Shown: positions 310-37,880, numbered from the stretch's first letter. The stretch is DNA of 43,681 nucleotides from an uncultured virus (IMG/VR IMGVR_UViG_3300050188_000002) (IMGVR_UViG_3300050188_000002); one strand, 5' to 3'. Translations and numbers: made by a program. Notes: generated by a model not told the origin, from the sequence alone.

Positions 310-588
310 ATGCATATCAACATTAACATTGGGGTTTTCCATCCTTCCCTTTGGAATAAGTTTGATGAGATAGTTGAGTTGTATTGGAATTCAACGTTTG
401 ATGACATTAAGAAGAAGTTTAACGTAGAGTTCGACGCCGATGGTTTTATTCCTAATGGTTGGAATGAGATCAAGTTAACATCAACTGAAGGTATACTTTT
501 CATATGGAAAGAGATTGAGTGGGACTTGAAGATTGATCTTGGAAACCATTTGACTAAACTCTTGGGTGGAATTAGGATAACAACATGA
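310..588 (+). CDS. hypothetical protein
   Basis: 92 aa ORF with an ATGA overlap into tilS. Confidence 0.6.
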   Translation: MHININIGVFHPSLWNKFDEIVELYWNSTFDDIKKKFNVEFDADGFIPNGWNEIKLTSTEGILFIWKEIEWDLKIDLGNHLTKLLGGIRITT

Positions 589-1250
589 ACAAGTACGAAC
601 GCGATATGATTCCCAGCGGATTGGGATATACGGTGGCTGTGTCTGGTGGCATTGACAGTATCGGCATCGCGCATTACTTGGCCACTGGAAAGAAATTACC
701 TATCAATGTTTGGCATTTCAATCACAAACTTCGACCACAGAATGATTTGATGGAAGACGCCGTTAGGAGGTTTTGTGTTGAGTTTAACATTCCATTGATT
801 GTAAATCGAAGAAAAGAAAGCGACACCAAGCCTGATGGTGAATCTTGTGAATCATTTTATAGAGATCTACGCTTGAAAGAGATGTATAAGATTACAAATC
901 ATATCATCTTGGGACACCATTTGAATGATTGTGTTGAGAGTCATATTTTAAACTTCTTGAATGGCAAAGAGATGTATGCTCCTATGCCTGTGTATACTCC
1001 ATTGAGTGAGCATGGAAGTATCATAAGACCATTCCTATTGGTGACTAAGCGTGATATCTTGGATCATTGTCGTAGGTTTGATTTGGAACGTTTTGTAGTT
1101 GCGGATGAAACGAACGCATGTGTAGATATGCGTCGAAATTGGGTTAGACATGATTTAATTCCGACGATTGAGACGAAGTATCCTGGGTTGGAAACCATTG
1201 TGAAAAAGAAAGTCAGACAAGCTTACGACAACCATTACTTAAGGATATAA
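585..1250 (+). CDS. tilS: tRNA(Ile)-lysidine synthetase, minimal catalytic domain
   Basis: PP-loop AVSGGIDS, HFNHKLR, GHHLNDCVE, IIRPFL, DETN, RNWVRHDLIP; AGGA RBS. Confidence 0.92.
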   Translation: MNKYERDMIPSGLGYTVAVSGGIDSIGIAHYLATGKKLPINVWHFNHKLRPQNDLMEDAVRRFCVEFNIPLIVNRRKESDTKPDGESCESFYRDLRLKEMYKITNHIILGHHLNDCVESHILNFLNGKEMYAPMPVYTPLSEHGSIIRPFLLVTKRDILDHCRRFDLERFVVADETNACVDMRRNWVRHDLIPTIETKYPGLETIVKKKVRQAYDNHYLRI

Positions 1251-1251
1251 C

Positions 1252-1479
1252 ATGTTTCTAGAGATGCTTAATAGTGTGGTTGGACTTTTCGGGTATAAGG
1301 TGATTCCGAATTTTGTTCCAACTGTCACTCCGGAAACGCTTGAATTCGAGATGGTTACCTACGCAGCCAATCGCAATCAAGTCAAGCCTGTGTCAGAGAT
1401 CCAAGAGTATGATGATAGAAGAATTGCATATCAATGCTCAATGCCGGAGTTAGGTCATTACATTGTATCAATCGTGTAA
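1252..1479 (+). CDS. hypothetical protein, possibly continuing in the -1 frame to 1559
   Basis: Starts 1 nt after the tilS stop with an AAGGA RBS; the -1 frame stays open to TAA at 1557-1559. Confidence 0.55.
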   Translation: MFLEMLNSVVGLFGYKVIPNFVPTVTPETLEFEMVTYAANRNQVKPVSEIQEYDDRRIAYQCSMPELGHYIVSIV

Positions 1480-1638
1480 TAACTTTAACAGAGAGAGTAA
1501 AATCACCAGAAGTACAAGCGGTTAAGTCAATCAAGTTCGACATTCCAATGTTTTGGTAATCATCATTCATTTGTGATGTTTAAAAGAAATCCACCCAAAG
1601 TCCAAGGTGGTGTATTTGGCGAAGAGGATTAGTAGTTT

Positions 1639-1933
1639 AAGGTCATTCCGTATACAATCCCGTAATACCCAATACATACTCATACTTCGGTATGAGTATG
1701 TAACTAAGTAATCCGGTACGTGTCGGTCATACTTCAACGAAAATCCTTGTCGGTGAGAATAGCCGACATTGTGGTTCCAGCCGGATAAGGATGGATGTAA
1801 GTGGTTGCTATTCTGCAACCTTCCACGTGGAGTCATTGGTATAAGTACCGTGTGAGGAGGCGCCTCTTAACATGGGAAGGTGTGCATACAGTTCTAAAGA
1901 CTGTAGAACCGGTTCGAATCCGGTATGACTTTA
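1639..1933 (+). ncRNA. candidate ~295 nt structured RNA with a tRNA-like 3' end
   Basis: T-arm ACCGG-TTCGAAT-CCGGT (1908-1924) next to ATGACTTT (1925-1932), which pairs with AAGGTCAT (1639-1646); 13-bp cUUCGg hairpin at 1673-1702; several more helices; no convincing ORF. Confidence 0.55.
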
Positions 1934-1948: not shown

Positions 1949-2243
1949 ATGTCGAGAGTAATAATTCAAAACAATCAATCTAGAAATCGTCGCATAACTC
2001 TTCTGATTCCAAACGGTTATAAACTGTTTTCTAAGAAGCCTTTTAGTTTATCTGAGTTTGATGGATTAGACCAACCAGGTAAAGCACTTCTTAGTTCAAG
2101 AACAATTACAATAGGGCCCGGGTTCTTTGGTGACGAAAAACCATGTCATCCGCGCTGTTCTAACACCTAGGGAACTGGTATCATGTGAACTGTCAACGCA
2201 TGATATAATTGGACGTAAGAGATTTGTAATCATTCCTACTTAA
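1949..2243 (+). pseudogene. family A paralog with a +1 frameshift
   Basis: MSRVIIQNNQSRN..IPNGYKL; the family C-terminus (IIGRKRFVI) is in the +1 frame, probably after the A5 run at 2136-2140. Confidence 0.65.
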
Positions 2244-2253
2244 GGAGAACCAT

Positions 2254-2610
2254 ATGTTATACACTTACGATGAATCTAAGCTCATGTTGCAAAACGCGTA
2301 TCTGACTCAGATCGGACGCCTTGCTGAAGGTACTTCTCCTAAGAAGGAAGACATCGAATCCTGTCAGAAACTTGGTTGCATGTTCCTACAAAAGCAGATG
2401 GAGATGATGACAAAGCGTCAGCAAATTGCCGCTTTGAGTTCAGTTTTACAACGGCTCCATGAAGAACTCAAATCTGATGCCGGGTATGTTGCCGCGGTGT
2501 TTGTTGATCTGGGGGTTACAGGTTGTTCTACTGCGAACAACATGGAGTATTTGGAAGCTCTCAAAGACAAGAATGAAATCCTCCTCGAAGCCTATAAGGA
2601 ATTCCTATGA
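2254..2610 (+). CDS. hypothetical protein
   Basis: AAGGAG RBS, 118 aa. Confidence 0.75.
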   Translation: MLYTYDESKLMLQNAYLTQIGRLAEGTSPKKEDIESCQKLGCMFLQKQMEMMTKRQQIAALSSVLQRLHEELKSDAGYVAAVFVDLGVTGCSTANNMEYLEALKDKNEILLEAYKEFL

Positions 2611-2888
2611 AAATCGAAATCGCTGGTAAGAAAATAAGTTTCTGTCGCAAGTTGGCCTCAGAATTTTCTGGTGAAAATCGTGGTGATATGATCGGAACCG
2701 CAAGGTCTGATTTGATTGTGGGTCAGAGATTCTTTACTTCTGGTCCTTCTTTGACTCCGGGTATGGATGAGAGACAGATTTTGACGTCCATTGTCACAGC
2801 CATTAAAGAGATGGAAACCGAAGGACACTATCAAGCCGTGACCGAGTCTGGATCTCTTTATGAGATTAAAGTCATAAAGGAGTCATAA
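2607..2888 (+). CDS. hypothetical phage protein
   Basis: ATGA overlap and AAGGA RBS; C-terminal TS.V...TESGSLY motif. Confidence 0.7.
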   Translation: MKIEIAGKKISFCRKLASEFSGENRGDMIGTARSDLIVGQRFFTSGPSLTPGMDERQILTSIVTAIKEMETEGHYQAVTESGSLYEIKVIKES

Positions 2889-3311
2889 ATGGAACTTCTG
2901 ATTGATTACAAGGTTTGGACTAAAAATGATTATTTGACCATTGAAATTAAAAGAATGAGTCAGCATTTTGCTGGTGTTACATCGGTTGTTATGAATGAGA
3001 TGTTAGCTAATACTTTTGATGTTACTGAAAGAGCGGAGCGTACTAGAGTGATGTGAACCGGTGTATGTTCTGTCACATATTTTGCTCTGGTATGTAAAAA
3101 TGAAGCGAAGTATCAAATGCTTTACTTGCCTGGTATAAGTGATTGTTTACGTCCTCTATCAACAATGAGTCAAAAAAGAGTACTGTCGTATACGGTACAA
3201 GAATATCGTGATGGTATTTTTGAATTCTTTAATAGATACAATAACGGTAGATACAAGTATATCACTCAAAGAATCACAAACAAGGGTGTCCAAATTTTCG
3301 GATACAACTAA
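2889..3311 (+). pseudogene. family B paralog with an in-frame TGA
   Basis: AAGGAG RBS; MELLIDYKVW...RVM*TGVC...ITNKGVQIFGYN in one frame with TGA at 3054-3056; termini match family B. Confidence 0.65.
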
Positions 3312-4452: not shown

Positions 4453-4458
4453 AATAAG

Positions 4459-4642
4459 TCACTAAAGGGTAACCCCTGAGTGATACGTTCAGATCCGATC
4501 CGTTCCACCCCTCAAGGTGGTGTGTCCAAAATCTCTGACGCGTAAACCCGAGTAATGTATGACACCTTACCGACCGGTACCTACCGGCATGGAACCCGCA
4601 AGGGCGAACGTGTCTAAATAATATTATACATTATTTTAGACA
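4459..4642 (+). ncRNA. candidate structured intergenic RNA or cis-element
   Basis: Nested helices TACGTTC/GAACGTG, GTTCCA/TGGAAC, AAGGTG/CACCTT, CCGGT/ACCGG, CCC-GCAA-GGG, with flanking hairpins. Confidence 0.45.
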
Positions 4643-4691
4643 TGGTAATTTGGGTACAAATAAAAACGTTATACAGCACATGGAACTTGTG

Positions 4692-4720
4692 TTGACACAA
4701 ACTATTCATCGTTGTAAAAT
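4692..4720 (+). promoter_or_regulatory. sigma70-type promoter upstream of tRNA-Leu
   Basis: TTGACA (4692-4697), 17 nt spacer, TAAAAT (4715-4720). Confidence 0.8.
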
Positions 4721-4783
4721 AGTTAAGACCTCTCTATCCTACTGAGTGTCACAATGTAGACAAAACATGTTGGAGAGGTTGAT

Positions 4784-4865
4784 GCTCCTCTGGCGTAATT
4801 GGCAGCCGCGGCAGATTCAAAATCTGCTCCCGCAAGGGGTCCCGGTTCAAGTCCGGGGAGGAGCA
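4784..4865 (+). tRNA. tRNA-Leu(CAA), CCA not encoded
   Basis: Acceptor GCTCCTC/GAGGAGC, anticodon arm GCAGA-TTCAAAA-TCTGC, long variable arm, T-arm CCCGG-TTCAAGT-CCGGG, discriminator A followed by CTA. Confidence 0.95.
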
Positions 4866-4888
4866 CTACATCACTTATAAGGGATGAT

Positions 4889-36436: not shown

Positions 36437-36524
36437 TAATGGATACCCCTAATCAAAGAACAATCTTTTATACGACGTTTGGAATAATACTCCTAGCGTC
36501 GGTTTTATTTCTATGGAGAATCTC

Positions 36525-37085
36525 ATGAGAGTTTTCTTTACGTCGGACACCCACTTCTCTCATCGCACCCTTGCAAAGGTTAGGAACTTCGCATCCATTG
36601 AAGAAATGGATGAGGTCTTAATCGCCAATTGGAATCGGACTGTGAAGGTGGATGATACAGTGTACCACCTAGGAGATTGGTTTGGTAAGCACATTCATAA
36701 TGATGCTGCACATGCAGTTATTCATAGGTTGAATGGTAGATTTAAGACCCTTATGGGAAACCATGATCAGAATGGATTCGGCGGACATACTCAGCCTAAT
36801 AACATCGCAGTATCGTCCAGTCTGGTGTCTCAGAACCTTGGGTCTTATCACGAGTTCAAAATTGGCGATAGAGAGTTTGTTCTAAGTCATTACCCAATGT
36901 TGAGATGGAACAAAAGCCACTACGGGGCAATTATGCTCCACGGACATTGCCACGGCGGAATAAATGAATTAGGCATTCCTAGACTTTTAGATGTTGGTGT
37001 TGATTCTATATGCAAGTTATTTGGTGGAGATAAAATACATCTTAGACCAATATCATTAAATGAAGTATTAGCAATAATTAGATAA
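36525..37085 (+). CDS. calcineurin-like metallophosphoesterase
   Basis: SDTHF, HLGD, GNHD, SHYP, HGHCH, DVGVD; start at the ATG behind GGAG. Confidence 0.9.
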   Translation: MRVFFTSDTHFSHRTLAKVRNFASIEEMDEVLIANWNRTVKVDDTVYHLGDWFGKHIHNDAAHAVIHRLNGRFKTLMGNHDQNGFGGHTQPNNIAVSSSLVSQNLGSYHEFKIGDREFVLSHYPMLRWNKSHYGAIMLHGHCHGGINELGIPRLLDVGVDSICKLFGGDKIHLRPISLNEVLAIIR

Positions 37086-37880
37086 TGATTTAAGTTTTTC
37101 ATGTTTTCTAGTTAACCCGAACTGATATCCATAAAGCATGTAATCACTAAACTTTATGATTTTACTTTTATTGGTTATCCTCAATTGTGAGCTCTTGTTT
37201 CCGGTTTTTCCTATTTGTTTACGGATAGAAAACTTAATATTGAGATCGGTTAAAACTTTTGCAAGTGAAGACCAGTCTTGATCATAACAAGATGCAAAAC
37301 ATAGTTGATAACAATAATTTTTTTTATTAATATAAATGCAACCGTCTCCATCAAATAAACCTCTCCAAAAGTAATGTTTTAAGTTTTCGGGTATATGATC
37401 TAAAACAGTATCATGACAGTTTTCCTTATTAAGAAAACCATAATTTACCAATATGGAGTGTAGTGGCTTCTGTCCAGTTATATAGGAAGTCTGAGGTCTT
37501 CTATTTGGTCTAGTTCTAGTGTATACATTCCACTCACCACATGAGTTTATAATTTCAGAAATTTGATTAGCGTCGTCTTGTAATATCTCCAAAGATATTC
37601 TAAAGTACGTTTTAGAATTTAGTACATTACAATCAGCCCACATGAATCCTAGTAAATATGCGATTTGTGGAGTTTGTATATTAGAGAATAGTCGATGATC
37701 AATTTTATAATTATCCCTTGGTTTGTATGTATAATTTCGTTTTAGTAATTTAAGTTTTAGTCTTCCAACCATTTTAATAACTGGTCTATTTAAATATTCT
37801 TTACATCTGTCTGCGCCTAAGACTGGATAGTTTTCTTTTAGCCAATTTAGTTCGTTTTCGGTCCAATGTTTTGCACCCAT
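37068..37880 (-). mobile_element. free-standing LAGLIDADG homing endonuclease-like gene
   Basis: AYLLGFMWAD and FWRGLFDGDG motifs, N-terminal WTENEL..L..NY; the only convincing minus-strand gene; AT-rich. Confidence 0.82.

Follow-up and report, generated by a model that had tools for sequence, protein, structure and literature searches.

What is encoded in the 470-nucleotide (nt) gene-free gap that follows a tilS-like gene in an uncultured virus (IMG/VR IMGVR_UViG_3300050188_000002)? The DNA analyzed here, called the window, is a stretch of 43,681 nt and belongs to a contig of 167,681 bp from a large phage not sampled before. A sequence-only reading of the window had proposed that positions 1639-1933 encode a structured RNA of the size of transfer-messenger RNA (tmRNA) with a transfer RNA (tRNA)-like acceptor stem and T arm, and had interpreted it as a tRNA-mimic non-coding RNA such as a nuclease decoy, a Y-RNA-like species or a very divergent tmRNA. 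Judged from its sequence, the locus is a real candidate for an orphan RNA gene of tRNA descent. The folding models place the working unit most likely in a cloverleaf of about 105 nt at about 1828-1933. The mimic proposal stands in so far as the RNA appears to be tRNA-derived, probably does not decode and has no match in Rfam release 15; its tmRNA and Y-RNA-like versions are not supported.

All the pairings that the sequence-only reading listed are present in the DNA. The T arm at 1908-1924 reads ACCGG, TTCGAAT and CCGGT and is canonical at 17 of 17 positions. The proposed terminal helix, 1638-1646 with 1925-1933, comprises 9 bp (eight Watson-Crick pairs and one G-U pair), and the 7-bp hairpin at 1887-1905 and the perfect 13-bp hairpin with a UUCG loop at 1673-1702 were likewise found. 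The interior helices lie at 1748-1754/1762-1768, 1711-1717/1780-1786, 1803-1808/1815-1820 and 1818-1824/1875-1881. An alternative 5' partner of the terminal strand, GGAGTCAT, occupies 1829-1836 as described. The fold of about 105 nt that this partner permits had been mentioned as an alternative, and it became the better-supported unit once flanking sequence was included in the folding. The tmRNA-sized unit of 295 nt was not robust, since the 3' acceptor strand prefers its near partner at 1827-1836 when the flanks are present.

The choice between the two closures depends on where the transcript is taken to start. We computed pair probabilities in four transcript contexts, namely 1636-1936, a start at 1600, a start at 1480 and the transcript 1252-2170. 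With ends at 1636-1936, the long closure (1638-1646/1925-1933) had a probability of 0.95, and the minimum free energy (MFE) of the long form was -103.7. Starting at 1600, the long closure fell to 0.17 against 0.72 for the short closure (1828-1836/1925-1933), and starting at 1480 the values were 0.02 and 0.60. In the transcript 1252-2170 both closures were weak (0.008 long and 0.16 short). Since the long closure prevails only for an RNA that begins near 1636, it is not robust, and these models lend more support to the core of about 105 nt than to the 295-nt unit. Three elements were stable in all four contexts, namely the T arm (0.96-0.98), the 13-bp hairpin (0.99) and the hairpin at 1887-1905 (0.95). 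Several interior helices exclude one another; 1743-1751/1784-1792, for instance, competes with 1748/1768 as well as 1711/1786. A 311-nt stretch containing the element was more stable than its shuffles (z-score -4.86). The minus strand was equally better than shuffles (z -5.24), so folding energy cannot choose the strand, and only the T-loop motif does so. Taken alone, the interior (1703-1886) did not stand out from shuffles (z -0.97; 39 of 200 were at least as stable), and the modeled fold signal of the 311-nt stretch stems from a few strong local elements. Separately, the loops of two hairpins in the upstream domain are complementary over 6-8 bases (1756-1763 with 1807-1814), a possible kissing interaction.

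Folded alone, the core (1826-1935) forms a four-way junction in which the MFE and centroid structures coincide (-38.8 kcal/mol, z -3.65); its parts are listed in Table 1. The canonical acceptor stem of 7 bp, 1830-1836 with 1925-1931, can be extended to 10 bp, and together with the 5-bp T stem and its T54-A58 loop it has the form of a canonical tRNA. The cmsearch alignments to ordinary tRNAs set the 1839-1885 stem on their D stems. The rest of the D arm is not canonical. Its loop measures 37 nt instead of 7-11 nt, beginning with A-G in the manner of A14 and R15 and ending with a G-G that abuts the stem, and A21 is missing. A single nucleotide, A1886, separates the D arm from the hairpin at the anticodon position. 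In the 5-bp reading of that hairpin the loop UCUAAAG carries C instead of U at position 33 and UAA at positions 34-36, and the variable region has 2-3 nt instead of 4-5. The sequence-only reading had seen no canonical anticodon arm here. This is right in that the native arm is non-canonical, with its C33 and shifted register, but the hairpin sits exactly at the anticodon-arm position, and ARAGORN reads it as the arm (anticodon UAA) after in-silico removal of the D-loop insert. No mismatch occurs among the pairs of the newly built helices, which are the 7-bp hairpin in its new register and the 11-bp hairpin of the insert. The G-U pair of the acceptor helix falls at 1:72 in the short form and at 2:71 in the long form. 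As had been noted, the DNA encodes no CCA after 1932; the tRNA-Leu of the window also has none.

Table 1. Coordinates of the RNA element, of its neighbors and of comparison genes. Entries with an L number refer to positions in tilS loci from IMG/VR; all others are window positions.
Feature	Position	Strand	Remarks
tilS-like PP-loop gene, short	585-1250	+	221 amino acids; Pfam PF01171, E-value 1.2e-30
Open reading frame (ORF) of 75 codons	1252-1479	+	between tilS-like gene and gap
Weaker third copy of 5' segment (AGGTCATT...)	1452-1482	+	within last codons of ORF 1252-1479
Second copy of three 5' strands	1638-1663	+	acceptor UAAGGUCAU, UCC, GUAUAC, AA, UCCCGU in the same order as in the core
Perfect 13-bp hairpin, cUUCGg loop	1673-1702	+	arms resemble the acceptor stem; core model aligns them there, 8.7 bits
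Acceptor-stem 5' strand	1827-1836	+	pairs with 1925-1934 in MFE and centroid fold of 1826-1935
U8-G9-like linker	1837-1838	+	U1837, G1838; from sequence and core fold
D arm	1839-1885	+	5-bp stem GUAUA (1839-1843)/UGUGC (1881-1885) in core fold
D-loop insert hairpin, 28 nt	1848-1875	+	6 bp, 1x1 internal loop, 5 bp, GCGC loop
Anticodon-position hairpin	1887-1905	+	7 bp with CUAAA loop, or 5 bp with 7-nt loop UCUAAAG
Variable region, very short	1906-1907	+	GA, or AGA if the stem has 5-6 bp
Canonical T arm	1908-1924	+	G53, T54, T55, C56, R57, A58 and C61 all present
Acceptor-stem 3' strand	1925-1934 (1925-1931 canonical)	+	discriminator-position U1932, no encoded CCA
Next ORF	1949-2170	+	AGAAAGG ribosome-binding site begins 4 nt after 1932
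tRNA-Leu(CAA)	4784-4866		ARAGORN; sole other T arm with a closing acceptor stem in the window
Split tRNA(CAU) genes	L040:3123-3387; L041:3123-3387; L048:3798-4062; L049:4127-4407		introns of about 190-210 nt in the anticodon loop
Split tRNA(GUU) genes	L013:1153-1422; L024:194-462		group I introns; L013 68.6 bits
Further intron-bearing tRNA	L072:231-556		group I intron, 62.4 bits
Phage tmRNA genes near tilS	L033:3686-4041 (also L034, L073); L051:588-893		tags GETQLALAA and ANDDVEIFEDFALAA

Two small sequence features belong to the core as side observations. The 5' arm of the D-loop insert hairpin contains AGGAGG as part of GAGGAGG, a strong Shine-Dalgarno-like sequence, paired with CCUCUU, which resembles the 3' end of 16S ribosomal RNA; an AUG 11 nt downstream of GAGGAGG opens an 18-codon frame through the anticodon-like hairpin and the T arm (1854-1928), and this arrangement is probably due to chance. 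An 8-base palindrome, CCACGTGG, at 1823-1830 marks the 5' border of the core.

The descent of the core from a tRNA can be read from its alignment with real tRNAs. A covariance model built from 1827-1934 aligned at full length with ordinary tRNAs of unrelated phage loci, with only the D-loop hairpin deleted. The best match was a tRNA(UCU) at L072 676-754 (30.4 bits, E 1e-5), followed by matches in L114 (24.6 bits) and L046 (21.6 bits). From U1892 to the 3' end, the element keeps exactly the spacing of a canonical tRNA-Arg(UCU)-type 3' half, in which U33, UCU and AA are followed by a stem strand of 5 nt, a variable loop of 5 nt, the T arm and finally the acceptor strand. The hairpin now formed at the anticodon position pairs in a register shifted by 2 nt, which results in C33 within a 7-nt loop and in the variable region of 2-3 nt. 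When 1841-1876 was removed in silico, ARAGORN at default settings called a tRNA labeled Leu(UAA), with scores of 107.2 (batch mode) and 111.1 (single run). The 73 tilS loci described below contain 95 real tRNAs with scores of 100.5-126.3 (median 115.4), so the insert-free core lies within their range. Many neighboring in-silico cut points score alike, and the call therefore indicates a near-tRNA body and not a splice site. The native sequence was called a tRNA neither by ARAGORN nor by Rfam. Together, these alignments indicate that the RNA descends from a phage tRNA. C33, the short variable region, the giant D loop and the missing A21 argue against decoding, and in its present form the RNA probably no longer decodes.

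Searches against known RNA families and tRNA finders gave no assignment for the native sequence. ARAGORN at default settings found neither a tRNA nor a tmRNA at the locus. At -ps80 the program still reported no tmRNA, and its one tRNA was a weak tRNA-Phe model with an "intron" of 395 nt starting from 1452. The intron mode of ARAGORN (-i0,400) at default settings returned nothing here, though it found the split genes in L040 and L041. Rfam release 15, searched in E-value mode with stretches of 1001 nt and 316 nt, gave no match at E<=10 to any RNA family; no tRNA, tmRNA, group I intron (RF00028) or Y-RNA-like RNA came up, and neither did any of the tRNA mimics described so far. This mode was calibrated on two control loci, in both of which the group I intron was found (L013, 68.6 bits; L049, 26.4 bits). 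A whole-window Rfam run at gathering thresholds was empty and was not used as evidence, as it also missed the tRNA-Leu of the window, which scores 49.1 bits on a short stretch (4784-4865; gathering threshold 29). A multi-locus Rfam run likewise missed introns that single-locus runs detected. The Y-RNA-like reading had no Rfam match, and no Ro/TROVE protein was present among 50 ORFs of the window scanned with Pfam.

A group I intron-split tRNA was considered as a candidate and rejected, as the locus has no intron core and no cloverleaf exons that join at the anticodon loop. In threading by eye and a MAFFT alignment against six intron-split tRNAs, the conserved core blocks did not align. With regard to a U-G pair at the 5' splice site in P1, the hairpin that holds CTCAT is all Watson-Crick, and a U-G alternative, 1679-1685/1850-1856, exists in the wrong topology. 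A very divergent tmRNA is close to refuted. The length of about 290 nt, the acceptor stem and T arm and the lack of an anticodon function would suit a tmRNA, and genuine tmRNA genes occur near tilS in L033, L034, L073 and L051. However, besides the empty ARAGORN and Rfam searches, only 3 nt separate the acceptor stem from the next helix compared with a D-loop analogue of about 13 nt in phage tmRNAs, an extra hairpin precedes the T arm, and the G-U pair is not at 3:70. The sequence-only reading had itself noted no ssrA tag frame. ARAGORN indeed finds no tag, and manual reading of the frames revealed none of the ...LAA type or with the usual ...AA tail, the best candidate being ADIVVPAG. By these sequence comparisons the RNA is neither a tmRNA nor a group I intron-split tRNA.

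To place the element among its relatives, we used the nearby tilS gene, whose proximity had been stated correctly. The TilS protein of the window has 72 homologues of 170-348 amino acids besides itself (73 proteins listed), and the closest homologue among 5.8 billion proteins is only 45% identical, so this phage has no close public relative. A scan of IMG/VR with the single tilS protein found no relative. An alignment of 40 TilS homologues retrieved 73 IMG/VR loci (L001-L073), in most of which tilS occupies about 2501-3100. Judged by the 400 nt that follow tilS, 52 of these loci are non-redundant. Short phage tilS genes of about 200-240 amino acids are linked there to tRNA(CAU). In 12 of the 52 loci ARAGORN reported a same-strand tRNA(CAU) no more than 1 kb downstream of tilS, and L048 makes the 13th; its tRNA(CAU) is mislabeled by ARAGORN, and the sequence matches that of L040. 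Upstream of tilS, a tRNA(CAU) lies within 1 kb in 4 of the 52. This linkage suggests that phages bring both the TilS enzyme and its substrate tRNA(CAU). A tRNA-Leu(UAA) follows tilS in 3 of the 52 loci (L013, L018 and L024). A group I intron of 191 nt interrupts the tRNA-Ile(CAU)-type gene after CTCAT in L040, L041 and L048 (59.2 bits against RF00028 in L040), and the split tRNA(CAU) of L049, whose intron scores 26.4 bits, lies 1015 nt downstream of tilS. Together with those of L013, L024 and L072 (Table 1), the split genes are 263-326 nt long, hence the resemblance of the 292-nt form to them.

The RNA itself has no relative in any of the collections searched. Blastn of 1400-2300 against 50,697 phage records, exact and degenerate patterns from the window in IMG/VR, and nhmmer of the RNA against the 73 tilS loci found no homologue, and none of the 73 loci carries this RNA. 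A 21-mer spanning the T arm and the acceptor strand is absent from 185,579 species genomes and from IMG/VR, and a 32-mer taken at the start of the window did not occur in the JGI metagenomes. The core model, run over 94 loci and five whole IMG/VR records, returned ordinary tRNAs or nothing, and a scan of 125 loci for acceptor and T-arm closure returned only intron-split tRNAs, tmRNAs and tRNA arrays. Among sequencing runs, the region occurred in a single DNA run, which may be its source and shows no variants, and in no RNA run; two sister runs do not cover it. A literature search on phage tRNA, group I intron and tilS returned only chloroplast or recoding papers.

Upstream of the core, parts of the tRNA body recur. 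The strands at 1638-1663 can pair without mismatch with the 3' partners of the core (1925-1933, 1880-1885 and 1872-1877), giving the 292-nt form and 9 + 6 + 6 = 21 paired positions across three helices. Sites able to pair with both the acceptor and the D-stem 3' strands number three in the 43.7-kb window, compared with a shuffle mean of 2.96. The 300 nt that precede the T arm contain two of the three, where about 0.02 would be expected by an arithmetic estimate. The second copy is thus not due to chance, because two such sites lie so near the T arm; from the sequence it may be either a diverged duplicate or a selected alternative. The third copy has a local alignment score of 25 (200 shuffles: mean 17.7, standard deviation 2.2, maximum 26). 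Words of the 5' strand recur, AGGTCATT at 1452 and 1640 and GAGTCATT at 1830, as does a 3'-end repeat, AATCCGGTA, at both 1710 and 1917. A direct repeat of 1688-1708 and 1921-1941 has 71% identity. Local alignment of the far-copy and core regions gave a 9-mer only, which 86 of 500 shuffles reached. A tandem-repeat explanation was unconvincing, as Tandem Repeats Finder (TRF) found nothing and a three-unit alignment did not persuade; the motif RGGTCATW was not enriched in the window. A mobile-element explanation was rejected, since no second copy of any part was found in the window.

We favor, at about an even chance, the explanation that the element is a non-decoding tRNA look-alike cut from its transcript by host tRNA-processing enzymes; from the locus we infer its expression, processing, loss of decoding and function. 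RNase P, the 3'-trimming enzymes, the CCA-adding enzyme, EF-Tu and elbow-binding proteins all read the top half of a tRNA, which is intact here. An ancestral phage tRNA would have kept this half (acceptor stem, U8 and T arm), and its lower half would have been rebuilt by addition of the 28-nt D-loop hairpin and by the 2-nt shift of the anticodon stem. The acceptor/T-arm helix would then serve as a substrate for host RNase P, 3' trimming and CCA addition. Through such processing, the polycistronic transcript would be severed after the tilS operon and ahead of the next gene, which has its ribosome-binding site 4 nt past the discriminator position, and a stable tRNA-shaped RNA would be freed as well. 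Once freed, the RNA may mimic a tRNA and, for instance, keep a tRNA-binding enzyme or a defense nuclease occupied. The 292-nt form would arise when the upstream copy of the three 5' strands replaces the near copy. The setting favors this explanation, with tRNA-related neighbors (tilS, tRNA-Leu(CAA) and two RNA ligases) and a 470-nt gap that the element fills. Several points weigh against it. Evidence of selection is confined to one sequence, as no homologue was found that could supply covariation. The pair probabilities come from thermodynamic models with assumed transcript ends, and a role as processing signal or decoy is suggested by analogy only. The far copy, perfectly complementary over 21 bp, is left without a role and could mean that the long form matters. 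A recently disabled tRNA gene could look the same.

The last point leads to the main rival, which we consider unlikely: the locus would be evolutionary debris without function, a disabled tRNA gene with fragments of earlier copies (at 1452, at 1638 and in the hairpin 1673-1702) left by high turnover in a phage tRNA cluster. The recurring 5'-strand words and 3'-end repeats suit this view, as do an interior that folds no better than shuffles and the lack of any relative that keeps the element; paralogy alone would explain the far-copy pairing. However, the retained top half and the perfect rebuilt helices argue against simple, uniform decay, which should hit all helices, yet the T arm, acceptor stem, 7-bp hairpin and insert hairpin have no mismatches. 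The re-registered stem also requires a newly matched 5' strand, and 470 nt of junk would be unusual in a genome with overlapping genes. Less probable than debris, and in our view quite unlikely, is a working decoder, that is, a tRNA with anticodon UAA or similar whose insert is tolerated or is removed by a route other than group I splicing, such as cleavage and ligation by a phage RNA ligase. Intron-split tRNAs near tilS in relatives (CAU in L040, L041, L048 and L049; GUU in L013 and L024), acceptance of the insert-free form by ARAGORN, the tRNA-Leu(UAA) that follows tilS in 3 of 52 loci and the Rnl1-type and PF09414-type RNA ligases of the window speak for it. Against it stand the missing group I intron match at E<=10 on 316 nt with both controls found, the empty ARAGORN intron mode, and the finding of no splicing endonuclease among the window ORFs scanned. 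Moreover, bacteria and phages are not known to have introns in the D loop, and C33, the 2-3 nt variable region and U73 fit no known bacterial Leu or Arg identity set.

A functional 292-nt form (1638/1640-1932), or an element that switches between the 292- and 105-nt forms, ranks below decoding and seems improbable to us. The 0.95 closure and MFE of -103.7 with ends at 1636-1936, the perfect far-copy pairs, the loop-loop complementarity of 6-8 bp and the placement of two of three dual-pairing sites near the T arm would fit such a form, though the total of three sites matches shuffles. On the other side, 36 or 156 extra upstream bases drop its closure to 0.17 or 0.02, co-transcriptional folding should presumably favor the near partner, the interior is not significantly structured, and no homologue supports the long form. 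A more specific proposal, which we regard as more doubtful again, is a two-state tRNA-shaped switch in which the nested 5'-strand copies (1638-1663 and 1827-1853) would compete for one 3' half, and RNase P would free an RNA of about 105 or about 292 nt. Leader folding or a bound factor would set the choice, and the processing of the tilS transcript and the downstream genes would be tied to it. A site acting at the DNA level, such as a phage attachment site carrying the 3' part of a host tRNA gene, is very improbable. The canonical 3' half from U1892 has no matching canonical 5' half, and short direct repeats surround it, as such a site might show. However, the 21-mer across the T arm and acceptor strand is absent from the species genomes and IMG/VR, no bacterial genome was found that has this tRNA 3' end at the junction of a prophage, no integrase was found among the window ORFs (50 by Pfam and 53 by PHROGs), and a matching 5' strand, D stem and U8 are present. 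The acceptor stem is also A/U-rich, as is typical of phage tRNAs.

Comparison with known systems shows both halves of the element. It shares with the canonical phage tRNA (RF00005) the 7-bp acceptor stem, U8, a D stem starting at G10, a loop start like A14/R15, the T arm and the end-to-end alignment of the core model with real tRNAs, and it differs by its hairpin-bearing D loop, shifted anticodon stem with C33 and short variable region. With the group I-split tRNA-Ile(CAU) genes it has in common the slot after tilS, a similar overall length (263-281 nt in those genes versus 292 nt for the long form here) and a long insert enclosed by acceptor stem and T arm, but they have an intron core and clean CTCAT cloverleaf exons and this RNA has neither. 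Their arrangement recalls the Azoarcus tRNA-Ile intron, the classic case. In the tmRNAs of L033 and L051, as here, the acceptor stem and T arm surround a large non-tRNA domain, and the long form is of similar size. Those tmRNAs have GGGGG-type acceptor stems, the D-loop analogue of about 13 nt and ...LAA tags, none of which this RNA has; here only UCC or UG follows the acceptor strand, the additional hairpin precedes the T arm, and G3-U70 is missing.

Looser parallels come from elsewhere. In plant mitochondria, t-elements and tRNA punctuation use a tRNA-like top half to recruit RNase P and RNase Z and thereby set mRNA ends. We propose by analogy that the same working principle may apply here, in a different kingdom. 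The RNAC and RNAD species of phage T4 presumably carry tRNA-like ends. For the T4 tRNA region, PMC3014915 describes two small stable RNAs of unknown function, and RNAC and RNAD thus resemble this element as small non-tRNA RNAs among phage tRNA genes. For the tRNAs of Lak megaphages, Devoto et al. (2019; PMC6784885) report "enigmatic" introns conserved across cohorts and modeled in the anticodon loop. Those genes, as described there, are likewise larger-than-expected phage tRNA-shaped genes missed by bacterial tRNA finders, whereas the insert here lies in the D loop and has no known relative.

The gap that holds the RNA (1480-1948) lies in a tightly packed genome with overlapping genes, nearly all of them on the plus strand in the window. 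Besides the two ATP-dependent RNA ligases (PF09414; PF09511, Rnl1-type), the window encodes a DNA ligase, RNase H, nicotinamide phosphoribosyltransferase, ribose-phosphate pyrophosphokinase and an SbcC-like nuclease subunit. The only sizeable minus-strand gene found is a LAGLIDADG homing-endonuclease gene at 37068-37880, and it shares some sequence with the end of a metallophosphoesterase gene (36513-37085). Another long stretch free of genes spans 4453-4783; its folded part, 4453-4700, has G+C-rich hairpins (z -3.47) and no Rfam match, and tRNA-Leu(CAA) is closely preceded by a near-consensus promoter, TTGACA-17-TAAAAT, at 4692-4720. Similar hairpins, CCACC...GGTGGTGT, follow the preceding genes in both long intergenic regions (1591-1613 and 4504-4523), and they may be terminators or processing sites.

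As a single orphan sequence, the element is at present of value as a lead. It occupies the slot where relatives keep tRNA-Ile(CAU), the partner of tilS, and it displays which part of a tRNA is kept, the half used in processing and elbow recognition, and which is rebuilt, the decoding half. Large phages repeatedly yield genes of tRNA shape that escape the tRNA finders. Provided that such RNAs are produced and stable, they would be candidate mimics that tie up host tRNA enzymes or tRNA-cutting defenses, or candidate signals for transcript cutting.

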